A stretch of DNA of 64,000 bases from Bacteroidia bacterium (GTDB lineage: Bacteria > Bacteroidota > Bacteroidia > Palsa-965): NCBI GenBank assembly GCA_044448685.1, contig JBIOHC010000001.1, positions 29,941-93,940 of the forward strand, given 5' to 3'. This document shows, piece by piece, positions 37,854-50,383 of this stretch. How positions within the stretch are numbered: the first letter of the stretch is position 1; every line of letters begins with the position of its first letter. The position numbers were made by a program, and so were the translations under genes. A model generated the notes under the pieces. It was not told where the DNA came from. It saw only the letters and a program-made list of their open reading frames with translations, and did not search any database.

Positions 37854-40829
37854 ATGAAAAATACTTACCGCACATTATTCGCATTGTCTTTCCTTGTTAT
37901 GCTACCTGAATTTTCCGTTGCTCAGGAATTCTGGGGTATGACTTCCAGCGGAGGAGCTTATGGACTTGGAACAATTTTCAAAGCTGATTCCGGCTGTACA
38001 AATGCAGTAGCGAAATATTCTTTTGTATCCAATATTCCGGGGTCGAATCCATCGGGCGACCTCGTTCAGGCAAGCAACGGGAAATTTTATGGCATGACGA
38101 CAAACGGAGGGACGAATGGAACCGGTGTGCTATTTGAATATGATGCAACCGGGGGTATTTACACACGCAAATTCGAATTCATAGGAACAACGACAGGAGC
38201 CAATCCTGTCGGTTCGCTTATTCAGGCCGGGAATGGAAAACTGTACGGGATGACCAGCAGCGGAGGTACCGGCAACATCGGAGTACTGTTTTCCTTCGAT
38301 CCCGTCTCTTCTGCATTTGTAAAACTGATTGACTTTTACGGAGCAAACGGTTCAATGCCCACAGGTTCCCTGATGCAGGCAAGTACAGGTAAGTTATATG
38401 GTCTTACAAGTGCAGGCGGAGGCAATGGAAAAGGAATTCTGTTCTCCTATGATCCCGTAACCACCACCTTCATGGATAAATTTGATTTTTCAGGAACAGC
38501 GGATGGAGCAGGCCCTCAGGGATCGCTTATTCAAGCTATGAACGGTAAATTATATGGTCTGACAACCTATGGAGGAATAAAAAATGCCGGGGCCCTTTTT
38601 CAATTCGATACCCTATCAGGAGCACTTTCCAAACTGGCAGATTTCGACACTATTCCCACAGGATGTAATCCAACCGGCTCCCTTGTTGAGATCAGCCATG
38701 GTAAATTATTCGGTACAGCTTCCTATGGGGGAGTAAATACGAATGGTACAATTTTTTCATATGTCATCAGTACGGGCATTTTTAGCAAAGTAGCAGACTT
38801 TAATGTTGCAACACTTGGCGGAACTCCTAACGGATCAATGGTTCTTGCACCCAATGGAAAGTTTTACGGACTGACTTTTGCGGGAGGCACAAACGGGATA
38901 GGTACTCTCTTTCAGCTTGATACCACGACTCTGACACTTGTTAATAAAGTAAATCTCTCCGGCTCAGCAAACGGATCAAATCCTAAAGGTTCTCCTATTC
39001 TGGCAACGGATGGTAAGTTATACGGAATGGATTACAACGGAGGCTTGAACAACAGCGGTGTATTGTTCCAATATGACCCGGGAACAAGTACGTATACTGA
39101 TAAGGTGGATTTTGAAACAGCAGTCAATGGAGCCGTACCTACAGGCAACCTGTATATGGCAACGAATGGAAAATTTTATGGAATGACGACTGCAGGGGGT
39201 ACAAACGGAACGGGTGCCTTATTCGAATTTGATACCGCCACTTCGGTGTTAACCTCCAAGGTGCAGTTCACCGGAGCAAATGGAACAAGCCCGAATGGAT
39301 CCCTTATGCAGGCAAGCAACGGAAAATTATACGGGGTAACAACCGGGGGAGGTACTTCGAATTCAGGTATTTTGTTCGAATACGATCCTGCTTCATCGAC
39401 CTATACTAAAAAGTATGATTTTGACGGTGCAGGTAACGGAGGGGCTCCTTTTTGCACCTTGTTACAGGCAAGCGATGGTTTGATTTATGGAGTAGCTACA
39501 ACCGGGGGAGCTAACAGTGCCGGTGTCCTCTATTCCTTTGACCCTGCAAGTTCAACCTATACCAAGACATTCGACTTTAACACATCGATAGACGGCGGGT
39601 CCCCGTATGGAGCACTCATACAGACAAGCCCTGGACGGCTGTTCGGGTTGACAGCCGGAGGAGGAAATAACGGAACGGGTATACTATATGAATATTCAAT
39701 TTCCTCTGCCGCCTGCACAAAAAGAGTTGATTTTGTTGGAACTACGAATGGTACCAATCCATATGGTGCTCTGGTTTCGATGCCAGGAGGTAAATTATAC
39801 GGAACTACATCAGGAGGAGGCGCTAATGGACTGGGCGTTATTTTCGAATACGATACAGCTTCCGGAACATTGACAAAAGTATTGCCGCTCACTGCACAGC
39901 CAAACGGAAATTTTCCACAAGGATCCATAATCGTTGCCGGGAATCAATTATTTCTGACGACCGTGAATGGGGGGGTGAACAATATTGGAGCACTTGTAGA
40001 ATATGACCCGGTTTCGAACACAGCTGTAAATAAATCGGATTTCGTTCGTACATCGACAGGTGCTGATCCCTACGGTGATCTGGTATATTTCTGTAATCCT
40101 GTTGCCGTAAGCGCCAATTCGGGTGATACAGCCAAATGTCAGGGCAACACAAGTATTTTATGGGTTACTACTACCGGCAAGTATGTAACCTATCAATGGT
40201 ATAAGAATGGAGTTGCAATAGGCGGAGCCACAGGTTCCAAATATATTATTCCAAACATGTCAGCCTCAGACAGTGCATTCTATTACTGTAATGTGCAGAA
40301 TGCATGTGGAAATCTGAATTCATTGCAGGTTCATATTACGCTCAATGCACAGCCTTCAGTTCCCACCATAACACAAAATGGTGCCGTATTAACTTCCAGT
40401 TCGGTAACAGGAAATCAATGGTACCTGAATGGGGTTATTATTACAGGTGCAACGGCTCAGAATTATACGCCGTCAGCGAACGGAAACTATACTGTGACCG
40501 TTACCAATAGCAGTGGATGTTCCGCAACTTCCGCCCCCTTTAATATGACCAATACCGGAATAACGGAAAAAGCCGGAGAGTTGATTATGCAGGTGTTTCC
40601 GAATCCGGCAACGACAACGCTCAATCTTAGTTTCCAGGTGGAGCAAGAAACACAAACAGAATTATCCGTGATGGATCTGCTGGGCAATACGGTTCTGAAT
40701 AGCCGTGCTTATCTTACAAAATCTGCCAATAAAACAGTTTTGGATATCAGTATTCTTAACCCCGGAATGTACGTACTCAAAGTGAGCAGTATTTCTGGTC
40801 AGGGGTTGATAAAGTTCTTCAAACAGTAG
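37854..40829 (+). CDS. Secreted protein with ~13 tandem GloVer-type ~48-aa repeats, Ig-like domains and T9SS C-terminal sorting domain
   Basis: Signal peptide. Repeats of the form NPxGSLxQAxNGKLYGMTxxGGxNGxGVLFEYDxxxxxxTKxxDF. C-terminal FPNPATTTLNLSF…YVLKVSSISGQGLIKFFKQ (T9SS CTD). Confidence 0.8.
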   Translation: MKNTYRTLFALSFLVMLPEFSVAQEFWGMTSSGGAYGLGTIFKADSGCTNAVAKYSFVSNIPGSNPSGDLVQASNGKFYGMTTNGGTNGTGVLFEYDATGGIYTRKFEFIGTTTGANPVGSLIQAGNGKLYGMTSSGGTGNIGVLFSFDPVSSAFVKLIDFYGANGSMPTGSLMQASTGKLYGLTSAGGGNGKGILFSYDPVTTTFMDKFDFSGTADGAGPQGSLIQAMNGKLYGLTTYGGIKNAGALFQFDTLSGALSKLADFDTIPTGCNPTGSLVEISHGKLFGTASYGGVNTNGTIFSYVISTGIFSKVADFNVATLGGTPNGSMVLAPNGKFYGLTFAGGTNGIGTLFQLDTTTLTLVNKVNLSGSANGSNPKGSPILATDGKLYGMDYNGGLNNSGVLFQYDPGTSTYTDKVDFETAVNGAVPTGNLYMATNGKFYGMTTAGGTNGTGALFEFDTATSVLTSKVQFTGANGTSPNGSLMQASNGKLYGVTTGGGTSNSGILFEYDPASSTYTKKYDFDGAGNGGAPFCTLLQASDGLIYGVATTGGANSAGVLYSFDPASSTYTKTFDFNTSIDGGSPYGALIQTSPGRLFGLTAGGGNNGTGILYEYSISSAACTKRVDFVGTTNGTNPYGALVSMPGGKLYGTTSGGGANGLGVIFEYDTASGTLTKVLPLTAQPNGNFPQGSIIVAGNQLFLTTVNGGVNNIGALVEYDPVSNTAVNKSDFVRTSTGADPYGDLVYFCNPVAVSANSGDTAKCQGNTSILWVTTTGKYVTYQWYKNGVAIGGATGSKYIIPNMSASDSAFYYCNVQNACGNLNSLQVHITLNAQPSVPTITQNGAVLTSSSVTGNQWYLNGVIITGATAQNYTPSANGNYTVTVTNSSGCSATSAPFNMTNTGITEKAGELIMQVFPNPATTTLNLSFQVEQETQTELSVMDLLGNTVLNSRAYLTKSANKTVLDISILNPGMYVLKVSSISGQGLIKFFKQ

Positions 40830-40830
40830 G

Positions 40831-41292
40831 CTATGACAAAAGTTTTTGACGCAGCATAAAGTCAAGCTGTTTGTTGGCTTCCAGGAGCATCTCGGTAAGA
40901 TGCTTATTGCTTTCCCTCAGGGAAAAAAGTTCGTAGGCCTGTTCTATGGAAACCCTCAGTTCATGCTCATCCCAGGGTTTACTGATATAGCGGTAAACCT
41001 GACCCTTGTTGATGGCAGAAATAACCGCCTGAATATCAGCATAACCGGTGATCAGTATCCTGACCGGATCAGGATATTCAGTCAGGATGGATTCCAGAAA
41101 CTCCACACCGGTTGTACCGGGCATGCGTTGATCGGTCAGAATGACATGAAAAGTATGTTCCTTCATTAATGTTCTGCCCCGCTCTGCTGATGAAGCCGTT
41201 TGAATATCAAAATCCCTTCTGAACAAAGCTTTGAAAGCAACCAAATTGTTGGTTTCATCGTCTACATACAAAATCTTGATTTTTTTTTCCAT
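40831..41292 (-). CDS. Stand-alone response-regulator receiver domain (CheY-like)
   Basis: ILYVDDE…LTDQRMPGTTGVEFL…ISKPW (conserved D, D, K positions). 153 aa. No output domain. Confidence 0.85.
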   Translation of the reverse strand: MEKKIKILYVDDETNNLVAFKALFRRDFDIQTASSAERGRTLMKEHTFHVILTDQRMPGTTGVEFLESILTEYPDPVRILITGYADIQAVISAINKGQVYRYISKPWDEHELRVSIEQAYELFSLRESNKHLTEMLLEANKQLDFMLRQKLLS

Positions 41293-41339: not shown

Positions 41340-43484
41340 TCAATCGTTGCTCCGGAAAATAGGTAAACTTATGATAAATTCACTTCCTGTTCCGGGCTCC
41401 GAATACACTTTTATTTTACCGTGATGTTTTTCTATAATTGAATGTGTAATGGATAAGCCCAGACCGATTCCCTGTCCAACATCCTTTGTTGAAAAGAAAG
41501 GTTCGAAAATGCGGGGAAGAATTTCCGCCTTTATACCTATACCATTATCCTGAATGCTTATGTACACGTTTTTTTCATCCGAAGAAGAATGAATAGTTAT
41601 AAGCCCTTCTGCGGGGCTTCCCTTCTCTGAAATAGCATGGATAGCATTATTCAGAATATTCATAAATACCTGATTGATTTTACCGGGATAGCATTCAACC
41701 GGAGGAAGGGATCCATACTCCTTCACTATTCTTATCTTATCCTTTACCAATGTATTCAGAAGAATGAGTGTGGCATTCAATCCTTCGTGGATGTCAGCTG
41801 TTTTGAGACTGTCTTCATCCAGACGTGAAAAAACCTTGAGCCCTTTAATGATTTCAGAAGTACGGGATGCGCCATCATCAATACCATGAAGCAGCTCATC
41901 AATTTCCTGCATGGAATAATCCATATCCAGCTCTTTTTTCAGCTTCTGAGCAGCGGCAATGGATTCGTCTGCACGGGGACCGCTTTCGATCTGTTCATAT
42001 TGTTTAAACAGCTGCCTGATTTCATCCAGGGTTCTTTTCAGTGATTTAATATTGGATTTGACAAAATTAATGGGATTGTTTATTTCATGCGCAATGCCGG
42101 CAGTAAGCTGACCGAGTGAAGCCATTTTTTCTGCATCCACCAGCTGGCTTTGGGCTTCTTTTAAGTTGGAGAATGTAAGGCTCAGTTCCTTATTCGTTGT
42201 TTCAAGCTCTGCAGTCCGTTCGTGAACTTTGGTTTCCAGAATCAGGTTCTGCTCCCTGACAATCCTTGCATTTTCCCTTAATGCATCCAATGCGCGAACC
42301 TGGCTTTCTTCCTTTTCTTTTTTAAGAATATTAATGCGATCTGCCAAACCAAAAGAAATCAGAAGAACCTCTAATGCAGAACCGGCCTGCATGGTATAAC
42401 GGGTAAAAGTATTATAGGGCAGTACTTCAAAATCTTTCAGAACAAAGATGCAGATGCCGGTAAGAAATATAGACCAGGCGATTAAAAAGAAACGTGCCGG
42501 GCGATACCCTTTTCTTGTAATGATGAGTGCTTCGGCAAAGATATAGATGGAAACCAGGATAGCGGTGACTTCTATACTCAGGTAGCTGGCCTGATACAGT
42601 TTAAATAAGGAAAGTATGTAACCGATGAGGTATGCGAAATATAGGAGATAGGTAAATTTGTATAGACGGGGAGTATAATGTTTTGTTTGAATAAAAGAGT
42701 GAAGAAAAAACAATCCGGTAACACCAACAAGAGCAGGATAAAAGAATTCAAGATTTATGGCAAGTGCCGGATAGTTCGGGTAAAGAAACTGAAAAGGATA
42801 CCCCTGCAACCCGGTTTGTGTCAGAAGTACACTGGCTATATAAACAACATAGTACAGATAGCTTTTATCCCGGACTGAAAAATAGATAAAGAGGTTATAC
42901 AAAAGCATAACCAGCATGAGTCCCACATAAATTCCCGAAAAAAGATTTTTACCATTAATATGTTCAAACAGGGATTGTTCTGACACTAAGAGGAAGGGCA
43001 GCTGAATCTGATCTGAACTGTGAATCCTTATGAAATAAGTAACCGGGTTATTCACAGGGGCATGCAAGGTGAAAATATAATCCGGAACTTTGTATTTGCG
43101 AAAAGAGAAAGGCTTGAATTCACCTTGTTTGTCTTCCTCGAACCGGCCCTGATCGTTAGGGGAAAACACAGACACTTCATCCAAGGAGGGCTGTTCCAGC
43201 ATCAGCATCAGATGATTTTCCTTGCTGGTATTCAGGACTGTAAATTTTACCCAGAATACGGAATTAGAAAGACCCATATTGGGGACAAGTTGGGTGCTGG
43301 TCCTGAATTTGTCCGACAGGATCACATTTTCAAAAGTAAGTGTGCCGGAGGCATCTTCCAGAATCTCAAGATTAGCTCCTATCCCCTTATTTGTTTCATG
43401 ACCGGTATACAGAATTGGACCGGAAGCATGAGCCTGTATAAAAAAGCCAAATAAGAAGAAAAGTATAAAAGAGAGCTTGTTCAT
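41340..43484 (-). CDS. 7TMR-DISM-type sensor histidine kinase (extracellular DISMED2-like domain + 7TM + HisKA + HATPase_c)
   Basis: Signal peptide. ~170-aa extracellular domain. Seven TM helices. H-box GIAHEINNPINF. G-boxes (…DNGIGIKAEILPRIFEPFFSTK…GIGLGLSITHSII…). Confidence 0.85.
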   Translation of the reverse strand: MNKLSFILFFLFGFFIQAHASGPILYTGHETNKGIGANLEILEDASGTLTFENVILSDKFRTSTQLVPNMGLSNSVFWVKFTVLNTSKENHLMLMLEQPSLDEVSVFSPNDQGRFEEDKQGEFKPFSFRKYKVPDYIFTLHAPVNNPVTYFIRIHSSDQIQLPFLLVSEQSLFEHINGKNLFSGIYVGLMLVMLLYNLFIYFSVRDKSYLYYVVYIASVLLTQTGLQGYPFQFLYPNYPALAINLEFFYPALVGVTGLFFLHSFIQTKHYTPRLYKFTYLLYFAYLIGYILSLFKLYQASYLSIEVTAILVSIYIFAEALIITRKGYRPARFFLIAWSIFLTGICIFVLKDFEVLPYNTFTRYTMQAGSALEVLLISFGLADRINILKKEKEESQVRALDALRENARIVREQNLILETKVHERTAELETTNKELSLTFSNLKEAQSQLVDAEKMASLGQLTAGIAHEINNPINFVKSNIKSLKRTLDEIRQLFKQYEQIESGPRADESIAAAQKLKKELDMDYSMQEIDELLHGIDDGASRTSEIIKGLKVFSRLDEDSLKTADIHEGLNATLILLNTLVKDKIRIVKEYGSLPPVECYPGKINQVFMNILNNAIHAISEKGSPAEGLITIHSSSDEKNVYISIQDNGIGIKAEILPRIFEPFFSTKDVGQGIGLGLSITHSIIEKHHGKIKVYSEPGTGSEFIISLPIFRSND

Positions 43485-44224
43485 ATGCGGACAAAAGGGG
43501 AATATACTAAAGAAAGAGCTTGTGCGTTTTTCAATTCATTAACGTATATAACGATCAGGTCATAGTCTACCTCAAAGGTGCCCTTGGGGCCCGTTTCAAT
43601 AAGGATAGTCCTTGGATTGGCTCTTAGCTCCAACATCCGTCGCCTGTCATACTCTGTACTGCTGGCCAACGTTTCGGCATTCATGATACCAACTACTTTG
43701 GCCAGATATTCTTCAGTAGGATAGATAAAATCTCCATCCTTTCCGAGTGTTTTGTCAATTACAAAACCGACACGGGTGAACATAGGCAGGGAATATTCTG
43801 CACAAATCCCCAGCAAGGTTCGGAAGTGAAGCTGGTTAATAATGGATATGGCAGCCCGCACCAGCAGGATACTGATTCCCCGTCCGGCCACTTCCCTGGC
43901 ATTCCAGAGTCCGCAAAGTTCACCGGTACCTCCATCCTGACGGTGTTTGAGTACAAGATCATATACCTGGGAGTCCATCTTGCCAACTGCGGTTTCAACC
44001 GGCAATGGATGCACTCCATCGGCAACCTGGACACGAATTCCTCCAACTAGTTTACCATCCAGCTCGGCTACTACGCCATAAGTGAATGGATTTTCTGCCC
44101 AGTCTTTGGAATAGGAGGTGACATTGAGGATACCATAATCTTCCAGCACCCTTCGATGGCCTTCTATGTATTCCAGGCATAAGCCCTGCTCCCATACGGG
44201 GTAAAAAGATCTGATTTTCAGCAT
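43481..44224 (-). CDS. GNAT-fold protein resembling LuxI/FeeM-type N-acyl amino-acid (autoinducer-like) synthases, with ~70-aa C-terminal extension
   Basis: 247 aa. β-α GNAT-like core (…YGVVAELDGKLVGGIRVQV…GELCGLWNAREVAGRGISILLVRAAISI…). 4-bp overlap with the downstream HK (ATGA). Family assignment from sequence pattern only. Confidence 0.45.
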   Translation of the reverse strand: MLKIRSFYPVWEQGLCLEYIEGHRRVLEDYGILNVTSYSKDWAENPFTYGVVAELDGKLVGGIRVQVADGVHPLPVETAVGKMDSQVYDLVLKHRQDGGTGELCGLWNAREVAGRGISILLVRAAISIINQLHFRTLLGICAEYSLPMFTRVGFVIDKTLGKDGDFIYPTEEYLAKVVGIMNAETLASSTEYDRRRMLELRANPRTILIETGPKGTFEVDYDLIVIYVNELKNAQALSLVYSPFVRI

Positions 44225-44227
44225 GGA

Positions 44228-46546
44228 TCATTTTAGATACAAGACCTCTGTAAGCGGCCTTCTCAGGGCCTTTGTCTCCATTTCATTTGCAATATGCAAC
44301 TTGATAAGGAATACATGTTCTGTGTTTCCTTCCAGTGCAAACAACCGGTTAAAACGGGCATGCAGTTGGGTAAGTTCTTGTTCCATATGCGGACTGAATC
44401 TTTTCGCCTGACCATGAACAAGGCGACTGAAGAAATAGGTACAGGCAGAAACAGGGTGAACAGAAATACCAAGCAGGTTCGCCTGAATCCAGGCTCGCTG
44501 CAAAGCTCTTCCTCCATTGAAAAAATTCACTGAACTGTATGCCGGCATTGTGACCAGAGCCAGGGCAGAAGCTGTCTGAACAGCCTGCCGTCCCATTTTC
44601 TCAAATGCTGTACCCCCCTTCCAGGCATTCAGGTGGCGTATTACATCCGGCGTTACGGCCATACGGAACCCTGCCAGTTCAGAAGGGGTCAGCTCCACAG
44701 TAGCCAGATCAATCCCGTCCTGGGTGCGTTCTGCATCTTCTTTTGTCCAGCGCATTTCATGGACGAATTCCTGATGGTCTTCTTCATTCATAAGCCGAAT
44801 CCGGTCAACACAGCCAACAATATCCTCCGCTTCTTTCAAGTCGGCATTCGAATCCAGAAATTTCAGATCTGCTCCGGGAATACTCTTTGTTGCAGTTAGC
44901 AGTTGAGACAATCTGTCAGAATCAATCGTCCGGCGTATACCGTATTTTCGATTCGTACCACGGAGAAAAATGCCTTTGCTCAGAGAGTCGCAGGGATGCG
45001 GTTCAAGATGAATATCTTTTGGTAAGGTGGCGGTCTTATAAAAGCGGAAAACGGCAATCAGTTTGCTGTCATCACCTGTCTTGTTCAAGCAGGAAACTTC
45101 CAGATCAAGTTCATGTGCTTTCAGAATAAGATTTTCAGTGGTAGCGCCAAGACCAAGGAAGGAAAAAATATGCTGAAAATCGGAGGACCGTATACGGTCA
45201 TGGAACAGGCAGAGTTTTTTTTCTGTATAGATCCATTTCCAGGGTTGGTTATTTCCGGCTGAAGGAGCAGCAACCGCAGCTGTAATCAGTTCAACGACCT
45301 GTGCTTCACTCAGCTCAAGTTGCGATTCATCCGGCAGTATTGCCTGCAATCGGATAGTTTCAAGCATTTCCTCCCGGGTAAGCTCTGTTTCCTTTGTTGT
45401 ATCTTCAGGAACATGAGGGAGCTGGGCAGGAGCCTTGTCACAAATAAGCTCTTCCAGGTCAACAAAATATCTTCCGGACTCATGAAACTGGTCCAGGGCT
45501 ATCCTTCTGCAAACGTCGGCAGCCAGCGCTCCTCCCAGAACGACAGCGGAGCCAAGCTGTGGCCAGGTGGTCAGTGTCTGACCGATTTCAATCATGGACG
45601 CTTTAAGCTTGGAGGATATTGTTTCTGAACCAAGAATCGGAAGGATATATGGCACTTTTTCTTCGTTGCTGAGGTTCTTAATCTTGCTGATGTCGAGGTG
45701 ATCGATCATGCCATGTAATAAGGGACGATCCGGTTCCAGATCAAACCTTTCCACATCCAGTGTCCCCCTGTCATTCATATCCATCACAACCGGAATCCGG
45801 AGTGCCCTGGCCTTTTGCCGGCATAATATTTTAATATCCAGCCCATCGCACTCTTCCACCAGCATATCCAGTTTTCCTCCTTTCAGAAAAAAATCATCCA
45901 TATTTTCCTCAGTGAGTCCATCGGTATAGCAAACCGTTTTCAGGTAGGGATCCATTTCAGCTATTTCCCGTGCCACGGCAATGGCCTTGCTTATCCCCAG
46001 GTTATAAAGCCCGGTTTGAATCCTGTTCAGGTTGGTAAGCTCCAGTGTATCATAATCGGCCAGGCGTATTTCACCGAAGCTGCGCTCCATAGCCATTGCC
46101 ATGGAAATTGTTTTTCCTACAGAGAGTCCTATTACGCCGACTCTCAGTTGCCCAAGCCGGTCCCGTTCTTCAACAGTAATCTTGTACTGGTTGCGGTTTG
46201 TCCTCACCTCTATAAATTCACTTTCGTCAAGAATATGCAGCAGACGGTATGACCAGGGGTAATATATCCAGACACCATAGTGAGCCGGATCAGAATTTCC
46301 CAGATGCTTATCAACCATCTTATCCAATTGTTCCTGATTCAGTTTCAAGCTCGGGTTCCTGGATTTGAGAAGTTCCCTGAGCTGGGATCTCAACTCATCA
46401 CTTACCTGAATAAAAGGAGAATCCTGAAGAAGCTGATCCATACGCTCCTGTTCACCGGGAGTTTTCAGATTAAAAATACTGGGATGGTAAACGGAATGGT
46501 CCCTTCTTGTCTTATCTGTATGAGAAGCCAGTACTGTTTCAGACAT
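44228..46546 (-). CDS. ThiF/MoeB (E1-like) – nitroreductase-superfamily fusion protein (MoeY/Rv1355c-like architecture)
   Basis: Rossmann GxGxxG (VGVIGLSVGKTISMAMA) and E1-like core (~residues 130–380). C-terminal ~330-aa nitroreductase/Acg-like FMN domain with the PSAGNNQPW signature. 772 aa. Confidence 0.8.
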   Translation of the reverse strand: MSETVLASHTDKTRRDHSVYHPSIFNLKTPGEQERMDQLLQDSPFIQVSDELRSQLRELLKSRNPSLKLNQEQLDKMVDKHLGNSDPAHYGVWIYYPWSYRLLHILDESEFIEVRTNRNQYKITVEERDRLGQLRVGVIGLSVGKTISMAMAMERSFGEIRLADYDTLELTNLNRIQTGLYNLGISKAIAVAREIAEMDPYLKTVCYTDGLTEENMDDFFLKGGKLDMLVEECDGLDIKILCRQKARALRIPVVMDMNDRGTLDVERFDLEPDRPLLHGMIDHLDISKIKNLSNEEKVPYILPILGSETISSKLKASMIEIGQTLTTWPQLGSAVVLGGALAADVCRRIALDQFHESGRYFVDLEELICDKAPAQLPHVPEDTTKETELTREEMLETIRLQAILPDESQLELSEAQVVELITAAVAAPSAGNNQPWKWIYTEKKLCLFHDRIRSSDFQHIFSFLGLGATTENLILKAHELDLEVSCLNKTGDDSKLIAVFRFYKTATLPKDIHLEPHPCDSLSKGIFLRGTNRKYGIRRTIDSDRLSQLLTATKSIPGADLKFLDSNADLKEAEDIVGCVDRIRLMNEEDHQEFVHEMRWTKEDAERTQDGIDLATVELTPSELAGFRMAVTPDVIRHLNAWKGGTAFEKMGRQAVQTASALALVTMPAYSSVNFFNGGRALQRAWIQANLLGISVHPVSACTYFFSRLVHGQAKRFSPHMEQELTQLHARFNRLFALEGNTEHVFLIKLHIANEMETKALRRPLTEVLYLK

Positions 46547-46619: not shown

Positions 46620-47705
46620 TTAAGCCTGGTTTGGAATGACGATCTTAAATTTCGTTCCCTTTCCGATCACAGAGCTTACTTCAATTTCGCCTCCTATTTT
46701 TTCAACTGCTTCTTTAGCAATATAAAGCCCCAGGCCGGAGCCGGGCTTTTCTTGTGTAGCACGATAAAACATGTTGAATATTTTATCAAGATGCTCCGAT
46801 TCAATACCAATGCCGGAGTCCTCTATGCAAAGAGTTGCATTTTTTTGAGCTACTTTAAGATCAATGGAGACAAATTGATCGTGCCGGTTTTTATTCTGGT
46901 ACTTGATAGCGTTTAGTAATATATTGTTGAGGATAACCTGGAAACGGAATTCATCCGTGCTAAAAGCTTCCTGTTGGTCAATGCAGTACTTAAGCTGGAT
47001 ATTACTCTTCCCCTGGAAATAGTCAAAACTGGCCCAGGTTTCCCGAATCATTTTATCGAAGTCCAGAACAGAAGGCCTGATTTCATATTTGACATTCTGA
47101 TAGTAGTTAATGATATTACCGACGAATACATCCAGGCGATCAATACTTTTATCAATCATAGCCAGGTAATCCTGGGGTGTGGTATTGGGTTGGGTTTTAG
47201 CAAAATTGATGATCCCTTTGATGGACATCAGGGGAGCCCGGAGGTCATGGGAGGCGCTGTAAACAAATTTTTCAAGCTCGTTATTTGTTTTTTGAAGCTG
47301 AAGATTGCGTTCCTTAAGCAGCCTGCGGGTACAAGCCATATCAAATGCATTTCTCAGAATAACACGCAAGTTTTGTTCATCCCAGGGCTTGTTCAGGTAA
47401 CAGTATATTTTGCCTTTGTTAATGGCATCAATCACATCCTGCATATCTGTATAACCAGTAATGAGTATTTTAATCAGATCAGGATAGCTCGAGGTGATCG
47501 ATTCCAGAAAATGAACCCCGGTAATTCCGGGCATCCTTTGGTCAGTCAGAATAATATCCAATTCTTCCCTTTTCAGGATTTCCAGCCCTTCTTCAGCCGA
47601 TTTTCCCGTAAAAACAGTTGCATCTCTGCGAAAAGCAGCCCTGAAAGCCGTTAACTGACCCGGGTCGTCATCCACATACAAAATTCGGGGGGTCTGATCA
47701 AACAT
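46620..47705 (-). CDS. Hybrid REC–HisKA–HATPase_c signalling protein (receiver domain N-terminal to the kinase core; no TM)
   Basis: Receiver ILYVDDD…LTDQRMPGITGVHFL…LNKPW. H-box YSASHDLRAPL. HATPase_c (…DSGIGIESEHLDKIFNMFYR…GSGLGLYIAKEAVE…). The receiver is ~55% identical to the one at 40831–41292. Confidence 0.85.
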   Translation of the reverse strand: MFDQTPRILYVDDDPGQLTAFRAAFRRDATVFTGKSAEEGLEILKREELDIILTDQRMPGITGVHFLESITSSYPDLIKILITGYTDMQDVIDAINKGKIYCYLNKPWDEQNLRVILRNAFDMACTRRLLKERNLQLQKTNNELEKFVYSASHDLRAPLMSIKGIINFAKTQPNTTPQDYLAMIDKSIDRLDVFVGNIINYYQNVKYEIRPSVLDFDKMIRETWASFDYFQGKSNIQLKYCIDQQEAFSTDEFRFQVILNNILLNAIKYQNKNRHDQFVSIDLKVAQKNATLCIEDSGIGIESEHLDKIFNMFYRATQEKPGSGLGLYIAKEAVEKIGGEIEVSSVIGKGTKFKIVIPNQA

Positions 47706-47827
47706 ACGAATGTTCTGAGCTAGCTGGAATAAATCAAAGGTATTCTATTTGTACGGTATGAAATTTTATTTGGATGTACAGAGTCTTACAAAAAGAGCTA
47801 AAATCTTACATATGCAAGGTACATCGA

Positions 47828-49108
47828 TTATTTGGCATTGAAAAGGGCGAAGCTTTCTTTTTCAAGCCTTTCCCTATGATCCGGATGTGCAATATCAGTG
47901 AGCATTCTGGCCCGGTCTTTGCGGTTACGTCCGTATAAATTTGCAATACCATACTCTGTTACAACATAATGTACATGTGCCCGGGTGGTTACCACCCCTG
48001 CACCGGAATGAAGCATGGGAACAATCCTTGATTCTCCCTTCGATGTTGTAGCATGCAGGGCTATGATCGGCTTTCCGCCTTCCGAAAGAGAAGCCCCACG
48101 GATAAAATCCATTTGCCCGCCGACACCTGAATACATTACCGGACCAATACTGTCAGCACAAACCTGACCACTCAGATCAATTTCTATGGCACTGTTAATG
48201 GCAACCACCTTGGGATTCTGTCTGATAATATGGGTATCATTTACATAGGCGGCATCCTCCATTTCAATAAGAGGATTGTCATCTACAAATTCATACAGTC
48301 TCCTGCTCCCCAGAATAAAGCCGGCTACTATTTTGCCGGGATGTTTTTTCTTAAAAGCACCGGTAATGACACCTTTTTCAACAAGGTCAATAACCCCGTC
48401 TGAGAACATTTCACTGTGGATGCCAAGGTGTCTGTGATTCTTAAGCTCTCCGAGTACAGCATTGGGAATTTTACCTATTCCCATCTGCAGGGTTGACCCA
48501 TCTTCAATGAGCCCGGCAACATACCTGGCAATCTTTCTATCCCTTTCATCCGGTTTGCCACTGTGAATTTCAGGCAATGGATGGTTTACTTCAACCATAT
48601 GTGTGAAACGGGACCTGTGAATCAGTCCCGCCCCGTGGGTTCTTGGCATCTGAGGGTTAACCTGTGCGATAAGGCAGGAGGCATTCTCAATTGCAGAAAG
48701 TGCCAGGTCAACGGAAATGCCCAGGCTACAGTAACCATGTTTATCCGGAGGTGAAACATGGAGCAGGGCTATATCAAGAGGGATAATTTTTTTTCTGAAT
48801 AAGGCAGGAACTTCACTCAGGAAAACCGGAATGTAATCAGCCATACCTGTTATAAGCGCCTTCCTGGTATTGGTACCAATAAAAAAGCAATTTGTTTTGA
48901 AATGTCCCCTTAAAGACTCATCAATATAAGGAGCATCCCCTTCTGTATGCATCTGATATATCTGAATATCAGAAAGGCTTTTACCTTTCTCCACCATTGC
49001 CATAATAAGTTCGGCCGGGGCAGCAGCAGCAGATTGTATAAAAACACGGGAACCTGATTTAAGCTCTGAAAGAGCTTCATGTGCTGTAGAATAACCGTTT
49101 TGATTCAT
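47828..49108 (-). CDS. Acetyl-CoA hydrolase/transferase-family enzyme (e.g. succinyl-CoA:acetate or 4-hydroxybutyrate CoA-transferase type)
   Basis: 426 aa. Family-typical N-terminus MNQNGYSTAHEALSELKSGSRVFI and conserved GIG…E region. Confidence 0.8.
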   Translation of the reverse strand: MNQNGYSTAHEALSELKSGSRVFIQSAAAAPAELIMAMVEKGKSLSDIQIYQMHTEGDAPYIDESLRGHFKTNCFFIGTNTRKALITGMADYIPVFLSEVPALFRKKIIPLDIALLHVSPPDKHGYCSLGISVDLALSAIENASCLIAQVNPQMPRTHGAGLIHRSRFTHMVEVNHPLPEIHSGKPDERDRKIARYVAGLIEDGSTLQMGIGKIPNAVLGELKNHRHLGIHSEMFSDGVIDLVEKGVITGAFKKKHPGKIVAGFILGSRRLYEFVDDNPLIEMEDAAYVNDTHIIRQNPKVVAINSAIEIDLSGQVCADSIGPVMYSGVGGQMDFIRGASLSEGGKPIIALHATTSKGESRIVPMLHSGAGVVTTRAHVHYVVTEYGIANLYGRNRKDRARMLTDIAHPDHRERLEKESFALFNAK

Positions 49109-49528: not shown

Positions 49529-50383
49529 TTATTCGTGAATAGACAATAAGGGGATATGCGTATGGAAGGCCATTGATCGTGTATTGCTTTTGTGAAACAG
49601 ATTTGACAACAGGTTACGTACATGTGGTACCATGACCAGGAGGTTGGCTTTATTTTTCTTTATAAACAACTGGAGCTCCGGCTCCATTTGGCCGGAAACA
49701 GAGAAGTAATAAGAAGGATGAAATGAAGCCAGTTCACCCCTTGTTTTAAAGGGGACCGCCTCTGCCTTGCCGGCCTCATACCCGGCTTCGGATTTCTGAA
49801 TATTCAGCACAAGCAGGCTTGATTTAAATACATGGACAAGAGGGCCCAATACCCTGGTGAATTTGCCGGGAAGAAATTTTTCTTCATCACAGGCAAATGC
49901 AATAACACGGATCGGGCGGAATCTGGCCTTTTCAGGCACAATCAGGACAGGGCATTTTGTTTTTTTCAACAATGAAGTTGTATTGCTTCCCATAAGGATA
50001 TTCGTACGCTTTCCTGCACCTGTAATTCCCATCACCACCAGATCGGCATGTGAACGTTTTATTTCAGCACAGATCTCCTCCCGTATTATAAAACCCATTC
50101 TTGATATCGCTGTGACGGGAACCTTACCCATAGTCTGTTTTTCCAATGCCTGACGCAGCTTTTCGATTTGAAATTCAGAACGCATTTCCATCTGTTCTGC
50201 AATCACTGTGATCGGTGAGTCGGGATCGGGCAGAGGAATCGAATAGATGTGAAGCAGGGTGATTCCGGCTTTCAGGTGTTCGGCCAGTTTAACGGCATAA
50301 GTCAGGGCATTCATAGAGACGACCGAATAATCGACAGGAACCAGTATCATTTGAATTCGGCTGTTTGAAAAGGACTTTGCCAT
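49529..50383 (-). CDS. Tandem universal stress protein (UspA-domain ×2)
   Basis: Two ~140-aa Usp-like halves (…ILVPVDYS…; …RVIAFACDEE…LVMG…). Confidence 0.8.
   Translation of the reverse strand: MAKSFSNSRIQMILVPVDYSVVSMNALTYAVKLAEHLKAGITLLHIYSIPLPDPDSPITVIAEQMEMRSEFQIEKLRQALEKQTMGKVPVTAISRMGFIIREEICAEIKRSHADLVVMGITGAGKRTNILMGSNTTSLLKKTKCPVLIVPEKARFRPIRVIAFACDEEKFLPGKFTRVLGPLVHVFKSSLLVLNIQKSEAGYEAGKAEAVPFKTRGELASFHPSYYFSVSGQMEPELQLFIKKNKANLLVMVPHVRNLLSNLFHKSNTRSMAFHTHIPLLSIHE

Follow-up and report, generated by a model that had tools for sequence, protein, structure and literature searches.

Pathways shown biochemically to produce N-acyl oxazolones are TrzA/TrzS (Rv1356c/Rv1355c), the N-acyl tryptazolone pathway of Mycobacterium, Rhodococcus, and their relatives (PMC12856293), TyzACB, an oxazolone pathway of M. 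tuberculosis (PMC10404671), and OxzA/OxzB, the tyrazolone/phenazolone synthetase of Pseudoalteromonas rubra and other Proteobacteria (bioRxiv 10.1101/2020.06.11.147165). In the steps that they share, an acyltransferase of the FeeM/LuxI fold N-acylates an aromatic amino acid (Tyr, Phe, or Trp) from an acyl-coenzyme A (acyl-CoA), followed by ThiF-like ATP-dependent cyclisation and then desaturation by a flavin oxidase of the nitroreductase superfamily. Both discovering groups, working on Proteobacteria and on M. tuberculosis, suspected a signalling role for oxazolones but named no receptor. Here we describe a computational analysis of a 64,000-nucleotide stretch of a Bacteroidota genome (Bacteroidia bacterium, GenBank assembly GCA_044448685.1, contig JBIOHC010000001.1, positions 29,941 to 93,940), referred to below in its whole length as the window. 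Its subject is a gene encoding a GNAT protein of 247 residues (43481-44224, minus strand), which lies between the gene of a TrzS-like protein and that of a 7TMR-DISM sensor histidine kinase. The two enzymes add a new, divergent case to the known oxazolone pathway, and that they are coupled in fixed fashion to a 7TMR-DISM phosphorelay is new as well. We think it likely, from homology, that the 247-residue protein is an N-acyl amino acid synthase of the TrzA/OxzA type. That it supplies a TrzS-like oxazolone pathway whose product is sensed by the kinase of the same module is a combined explanation on which we are evenly balanced.

The closest described system is TrzA/TrzS. Both it and the window pair are two-gene units in which an N-acyltransferase of about 250 residues with the FeeM/LuxI fold accompanies a fusion of a ThiF cyclase with a flavin oxidase. 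In contrast to TrzA/TrzS, the gene order in the window is reversed (S before A), and the window GNAT, unlike TrzA, has a conserved 45-residue C-terminal extension and a GxG loop. Cyclic di-GMP enzymes are encoded on the flanks of the actinobacterial loci, whereas the window pair lies within a 7TMR-DISM phosphorelay operon. The two also belong to different phyla, with identities of 22% for TrzA and 33% for TrzS. OxzAB and TyzACB share the same logic of an N-acyltransferase followed by ATP-dependent ThiF cyclisation and nitroreductase-type desaturation (OxzA and TyzA were compared by description). OxzB belongs to subcluster FDO-A8 and Rv1355c to A4, and in TyzACB the ThiF protein and the oxidase are separate, unlike the fused window neighbour. 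Producers of N-acyl tyrosines and oxazolones have been placed in Pseudomonadota, Actinomycetota, and Planctomycetota (PMC12479983), and the window pair extends the pathway to a fourth phylum. Our literature search, which did not cover most subscription journals, found no Bacteroidota oxazolone carriers and no linkage to a histidine kinase described; a search on 7TMR-DISM proteins together with N-acyl amino acids, Bacteroidetes, or ThiF/nitroreductase, under the same limit of coverage, found no prior description.

The key to the function of the GNAT protein is its TrzS-like neighbour, a gene that an earlier note on this DNA, made from the letters alone, had left out. The stop codon of that gene (TGA, 44228-44230) is separated from the GNAT start (ATG, 44222-44224) by a spacer of 3 nucleotides (44225-44227, minus strand; junction TGA-TCC-ATG). 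The gene (44228-46546, minus strand) encodes a predicted oxazolone synthetase of 772 residues, an N-terminal ThiF/E1-type ATP-dependent cyclase joined to a tandem-nitroreductase flavin-dependent oxidase, with ThiF and Nitroreductase as its Pfam domains. Residues 13-769 match the NCBIfam equivalog model NF005901 'Rv1355c family' with E = 9.9e-243 and 807.5 bits (cutoff 476), and the protein is collinear over its full length with the TrzS orthologues of M. haemophilum, Rhodococcus, and Mycolicibacterium at 33% identity. Motifs invariant in the alignment with TrzS include a glycine loop, RLADxD, NxNR, EECD, and GNxQPW. Mutagenesis of TrzS has shown that D217 is needed for cyclisation and R540 for desaturation, and the mutagenic primers in the supplement place D217 in EECD, R540 in DRIR, and Q651 in Q-P-V-S (PMC12856293). 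The equivalents of the first two residues are kept in the window protein as D234 of EECD and R584 of DRIR. The Q651 position is H697, and His is also found there in several actinobacterial orthologues. Among the homologue matches listed, relatives of the 772-residue protein come from Bacteroidota only. With such a neighbour, the pathway probably does not stop at a plain N-acyl amino acid but ends in an N-acyl oxazolone or a dehydro-amino acid.

The GNAT protein itself is homologous to TrzA, and this homology, recognised by profile comparison, is remote yet specific. The actinobacterial TrzS/TrzA loci were reached by tblastn of plasmids, and the TrzA query family was derived from the adjacent 259-residue hypothetical protein of Rhodococcus. 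This family includes an M. haemophilum gene located between an EAL gene and a 715-residue ThiF gene, which is the Rv1357c-Rv1356c-Rv1355c arrangement (EAL-TrzA-TrzS synteny). Alignment of the GNAT family with the actinobacterial Rv1356c/TrzA family by hhalign gave a probability of 95.2% (E = 2.6e-8, 167 columns), whereas the reversed-alignment control gave 0.5%. When the TrzA hidden Markov model was run against the 983 open reading frames (ORFs) of 80 Bacteroidota loci it recovered 82/82 GNAT-family ORFs, 79 of them at E < 1e-3 (best 2.5e-14), and scored any other ORF no better than E = 0.7; the window protein scored E = 2.2e-8 and 29 bits. The similarity takes in N-terminal residues that lie beyond the generic GNAT match. 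The earlier note's suggestion of an N-acyl amino acid synthase thus receives independent support from the TrzA family. A Mycolicibacterium plasmid copy of TrzS (L082) had no TrzA-like neighbour.

The fold agrees with this assignment. An AlphaFold2 model of the protein, built with a 51-sequence family alignment, has a predicted local distance difference test score (pLDDT) of 90.1 and a predicted template modelling score (pTM) of 0.88, with the GNAT core extending to about residue 182. Foldseek placed BjaI first (E = 1.2e-7), followed by EsaI, MesI, and RpaI, and FeeM gave the best TM-score, 0.78. In two independent fold searches the best matches were predominantly FeeM and LuxI-type enzymes rather than ordinary GNAT acetyltransferases, by a margin that is modest yet consistent across both methods, and the LuxI/FeeM-like character proposed in the earlier note is thereby borne out. 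The closest structures reported for TyzA are likewise FeeM and BjaI (PMC10404671). The resemblance to FeeM is at the level of fold only. FeeM (PDB 2G0B) uses acyl groups carried on acyl carrier protein, the LuxI enzymes (LasI, EsaI, TofI, BjaI, RpaI, MesI) use S-adenosylmethionine (SAM), and unlike all of these the window protein has an extra C-terminal helix-hairpin.

Conservation within the 51-sequence alignment defines three parts of the protein, whose N-terminus lines up with those of over 200 homologues. The core, residues 1-182 (43679-44224, minus strand), is the putative TrzA/OxzA-like N-acyl amino acid synthase domain of the FeeM/LuxI fold and contains the invariant motifs VGGIRVQ (60-66), GELCGLWN (101-108), and VAGRGIS (112-118). 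The last of these is a GxG-type loop that we take to resemble the CoA pyrophosphate-binding motif of GNAT proteins, which suggests CoA as carrier of the acyl donor. The core is followed by a C-terminal extension, residues 183-225 (43550-43678, minus strand), made of a helix (191-202) and a beta-hairpin (205-222). It is well ordered in the model (pLDDT 96-98), contains the invariant residues R201, E210, and Y221, and lies outside the alignments with FeeM/LasI and with TrzA; this helix-hairpin is specific to the Bacteroidota GNAT family. Conservation runs to about residue 225, and only the last 22 or so residues vary; this end (226-247; 43484-43549, minus strand) is unconserved, with pLDDT of 45-59, and is probably disordered. 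An unassigned tail of about 70 residues had been noted earlier. A tail does follow the core, but some 45 of its residues are conserved and folded and only about 22 are variable.

The family to which the protein belongs is large and has gone without a functional name. A word-indexed search gave 211 homologue clusters, all from Bacteroidota and all annotated 'hypothetical' or 'GNAT', and an exhaustive profile search gave 619 family clusters at the 50% identity level. GNAT superfamily membership is established by the match to a sequence model together with the GNAT fold. The sole Pfam match is Acetyltransf_1 (E = 1.1e-5, 26.1 bits, residues 39-154), no NCBIfam model matched, and neither the single protein nor the family profile found anything meaningful among the PDB sequences. 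Pfam Autoind_synth matched 0/51 family members at E <= 1, and Pfam FeeM (PF21926) matched 1/51 with E = 0.15, which is not significant. The TrzA family likewise matches neither the LuxI nor the FeeM model. Given the absence of such matches, the 247-residue protein is not filed under the LuxI or FeeM families.

Downstream of the GNAT gene lies that of the 7TMR-DISM kinase (714 residues, 41340-43484, minus strand). The GNAT stop codon TGA overlaps the kinase ATG in the sequence ATGA (43481-43484, minus strand; TCAT on the plus strand), an overlap that the earlier note had reported and that we found in place; it is an arrangement of translational coupling. The kinase has the Pfam domains 7TMR-DISMED2, 7TMR-DISM_7TM, HisKA, and HATPase_c, and is laid out as a signal peptide, periplasmic DISMED2, a seven-transmembrane (7TM) block, a coiled coil, HisKA, and HATPase_c. 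The first gene of the cluster encodes a hybrid receiver-histidine kinase of 361 residues (46620-47705, minus strand; Pfam REC-HisKA-HATPase_c), and the last encodes a stand-alone receiver of 153 residues (40831-41292, minus strand; Pfam Response_reg). The five same-strand genes are separated by gaps of 73, 3, -4, and 47 nucleotides.

This arrangement is conserved well beyond the window. A genome scan for the GNAT family found 416 matching species-level genomes, and the loci of the best 80 of these 416, which span Pedobacter, Chitinophagaceae, Cytophagaceae, and Flavobacteriales, formed our census; four more distant family members were sampled one by one. In 67 of the 69 census loci with enough upstream sequence a ThiF gene lies immediately upstream of the GNAT gene on the same strand (62 with the oxidase domain, 5 with ThiF only), and in all 72 loci with enough downstream sequence (72/72) a 7TMR-DISM kinase gene lies immediately downstream. 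Two of the four distant members (E about 1e-41) also retain the full cassette, and the pairing of synthase and kinase anticipated earlier is thus a conserved one. In the related loci the projected ThiF-GNAT gap has a median of 10 nucleotides and the GNAT-kinase gap a median of 5, overlaps are common, and the GNAT-kinase gap is at most 60 nucleotides in 72/76 loci. Orthologues of the 361-residue hybrid kinase occur in 66/80 loci, mostly as the next gene downstream of the 7TMR-DISM kinase, and those of the 153-residue receiver also in 66/80, usually divergent upstream of the TrzS-like gene. Clustering of the ORFs gave six recurring families: the GNAT, the ThiF-flavin-dependent oxidase fusion (ThiF-FDO), the 7TMR-DISM kinase, the REC-kinase hybrid, and two REC-only proteins. 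The second REC-only protein (about 135 residues; e.g., L012:11914-12327) follows the REC-kinase hybrid directly in 48 loci and is absent from the window. The window lineage, to which L001-L004 also belong, is rearranged, with the hybrid kinase upstream of ThiF-FDO and the first receiver downstream of the 7TMR-DISM kinase. Recurrence is limited to these genes and the flanks vary across loci, which indicates a self-contained module. Fold, homologies, conservation of catalytic residues, and gene order were all obtained directly.

We propose the following scheme, in which the reaction chemistry is taken from the literature on homologues. The GNAT protein would acylate a free amino acid at its alpha-amino group, with acyl-CoA as the probable donor. 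The TrzS-like protein would then adenylate the N-acyl amino acid's carboxylate with ATP and cyclise it to a 5(4H)-oxazolone, which its flavin domain would desaturate with O2 to an N-acyl oxazolone; hydrolysis of the latter would give an N-acyl dehydro-amino acid. Oxazolones have their absorption at 300-400 nm. Either the N-acyl oxazolone or its N-acyl amino acid precursor could be the cue for the co-transcribed 7TMR-DISM kinase, probably through the 7TM block, giving an autoinducer-like circuit of synthase and receptor in the manner of CqsA/CqsS or LuxM/LuxN. The acyl chain, the identity of the amino acid, and the sensing of the product by the kinase are elements that we infer.

The near-constant pairing with a membrane sensor kinase suggests that the lipid may act as a signal for which the module also supplies the receptor. 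In Vibrio CqsA/CqsS and LuxM/LuxN and in Legionella LqsA/LqsS the gene for synthesis of a lipophilic signal likewise adjoins that of a polytopic membrane histidine kinase (PMC3285556, PMC3376566), which feeds a phosphorelay as in the window module. The enzyme and receptor families of those systems are unrelated to those of the window, and signal binding has been demonstrated there. Within the kinase, conservation is 0.61 in the 7TM block, 0.64-0.66 in the catalytic core, and lowest, 0.45, in periplasmic DISMED2, and the 7TM block contains many invariant polar and aromatic residues, among them Y196, N197, D206, Q223, W337, and E372. The likeness of operon layout and the conserved 7TM block weakly favour sensing of the product, and we put forward the co-transcribed kinase as its sensor tentatively, at somewhat less than an even chance. 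More doubtful, though still to be entertained, is the wider proposal that N-acyl oxazolones, their precursors, or their hydrolysis products are self-made signals of Bacteroidota with this kinase as their receptor. RetS and LadS of Pseudomonas also combine DISMED2 and a 7TM sensor with histidine-kinase signalling within multi-kinase networks, but to our knowledge these are orphans, with no small-molecule biosynthetic pair in their transcription units, and the cues proposed for them are not lipids.

If the receptor proposal is true, oxazolone lipids would gain a first physiological role through a module present in hundreds of species, 7TMR-DISM receptors would for the first time have a class of small-molecule ligands tied to them genetically, and a phylum without LuxI/LuxR would have a dedicated system of cell-cell or envelope signalling. 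One conserved operon joins oxazolone lipids with the widespread 7TMR-DISM sensors, which makes both the role of the lipids and the cues of the sensors testable; cultured Pedobacter strains, such as Pedobacter steynii DSM 19110, P. duraquae DSM 19034, and Pedobacter sp. BAL39, are among the carriers, so the hypothesis can be tested directly. The assignment also offers a functional name for several hundred 'hypothetical' proteins.

Several observations weigh against joining synthesis and sensing in this way. No histidine kinase gene adjoins the characterised oxazolone clusters of Actinomycetota and Pseudomonadota. In Rhodococcus hosts tryptazolones are mostly intracellular, with N-acyl-Trp intermediates found in the supernatant, and oxazolones hydrolyse within hours at pH 8. 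At 22% the identity to TrzA is low, and the window protein's 29 bits against the TrzA model are close to the 26 bits of its generic Pfam GNAT match; with TrzS the neighbour shares just 33% identity, too little for the substrate to be carried over. Neither Pfam nor the ORF clustering of the 80 loci showed a DNA-binding or transcription-factor output among the module genes, and no feedback loop is therefore visible. Carbohydrates or ions are the ligands usually ascribed to DISMED2 domains. The parts of the module are also separable, as neither of two distant members has a kinase nearby. One of these, P0232 (L085:6001-7899), is a single-chain ThiF-GNAT fusion of 632 residues without an oxidase domain, and is encoded next to an OmpA-family protein and a DUF7619 protein. 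The other, P0265 (L086:4961-8053), is followed by a FAD_binding_4 oxidase and an R2K-clade ATP-grasp protein rather than by ThiF-FDO and kinase; these may be non-orthologous replacements for the steps of ATP-dependent activation and flavin oxidation. Such layouts indicate that the pairing of the enzymes is the deeper link, whereas the kinase pairing is very broad in Bacteroidota but not universal. Within the census, L075 has two GNATs and the kinase but no ThiF gene, and ThiF lacks the oxidase half at L007, L027, L050, L056, and L079. Tandem duplicate GNAT genes occur at two loci (L075:8001-9403 and L061:7243-8669). Given these duplicate-GNAT, ThiF-less, and oxidase-less loci, products may differ by lineage and may be a plain N-acyl amino acid, a saturated oxazolone, or an unsaturated oxazolone.

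The main rival explanation keeps the same oxazolone chemistry and reverses the relation between kinase and lipid: the 7TMR-DISM phosphorelay would sense an external cue (carbohydrate, ion, envelope stress, or antibiotic) and control the making or use of a lipid that is itself a stress, antimicrobial, or membrane metabolite. Pseudoalteromonas and Colwellia are induced by sub-lethal antibiotics to make oxazolones, oxidative stress and drug resistance have been connected with the mycobacterial loci, and regulators are commonly located with the biosynthetic genes that they control. The presence of a periplasmic DISMED2 that varies among species is also as expected of an environmental sensor. However, the lack of a transcription-factor output in the module counts against this explanation as well, the kinase 7TM block is strongly conserved, and the placing of the biosynthetic genes and kinase in one transcription unit with overlapping or nearly overlapping codons is typical of synthase/receptor rather than regulator/target pairs. 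We judge control by an external cue somewhat unlikely.

A second rival, that the protein is an ordinary GNAT acetyltransferase acting on a small molecule or on a protein such as a phosphorelay component, unrelated to acyl-amino-acid synthesis, is very unlikely. It would account for the sole Pfam match to Acetyltransf_1 and for the VAGRGIS loop with its likeness to a CoA pyrophosphate-binding motif, but not for two fold searches topped predominantly by FeeM/LuxI-type enzymes or for a specific TrzA homology that includes N-terminal residues outside the generic match. Moreover, a TrzS-like gene is adjacent in 97% of loci and a ThiF-GNAT fusion exists. Protein acetylation directed at the phosphorelay is accordingly unlikely. 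A true LuxI-type, SAM-using N-acyl-homoserine lactone (AHL) synthase paired with a LuxN-like AHL-receptor kinase is highly improbable, since, although the CoA-dependent AHL synthases BjaI, RpaI, and MesI are among the best structural matches and AHL-like activities have been reported from some Bacteroidota without known synthase genes, Autoind_synth matches none of the 51 family members, the TrzA proteins, nearest in sequence, put their acyl group on a free amino acid, and the obligate ThiF cyclase partner requires a free alpha-carboxylate, a group absent from AHLs.

Some further fusions and relatives were seen in the course of the searches. Members of the GNAT family are fused to an N-terminal TIR domain in P0218 (570 residues, on two short contigs; L091:269-1981) and to leucine-rich repeats in P0189 (662 residues); both may be artefacts of gene calling. 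A Kitasatospora plasmid (L083:4227-9213) encodes a 616-residue protein that matches the ThiF half of the window protein at 45% identity in its C-terminal half and is acyltransferase-like in its N-terminal 250 or so residues; a gene for a ketoacyl synthase III (KAS III) follows, and a LuxR-type regulator is nearby. We dropped this fusion as evidence as its acyltransferase-like domain has no profile similarity to the GNAT family (probability 0.5%).

In the window, a scan for sigma-70 promoters gave matches at chance level, and terminator-like sites were in modest excess (13 versus a shuffled mean of 8.0, standard deviation 3.1). A Bacteroidota-type -7 promoter motif, TAnnTTTG (TACCTTTG), lies at 47735-47742 on the minus strand, about 30 nucleotides upstream of the gene that opens the cluster. 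Since the window shows no enrichment of this motif, the site is a candidate only. Farther upstream are genes for an acetyl-CoA hydrolase/transferase (47828-49108, minus strand) and a universal stress protein (Usp; 49529-50383, minus strand). The CoA-transferase is kept solely in the closest relative, L001, so a link to acyl-CoA supply is probably coincidental. On the other side of the cluster, and outside the conserved module, a convergent gene (37854-40829, plus strand) encodes a 991-residue protein with many glycine-rich repeats of about 45 residues, then Ig-like domains and a Por_Secre_tail, the C-terminal sorting domain of type IX secretion.

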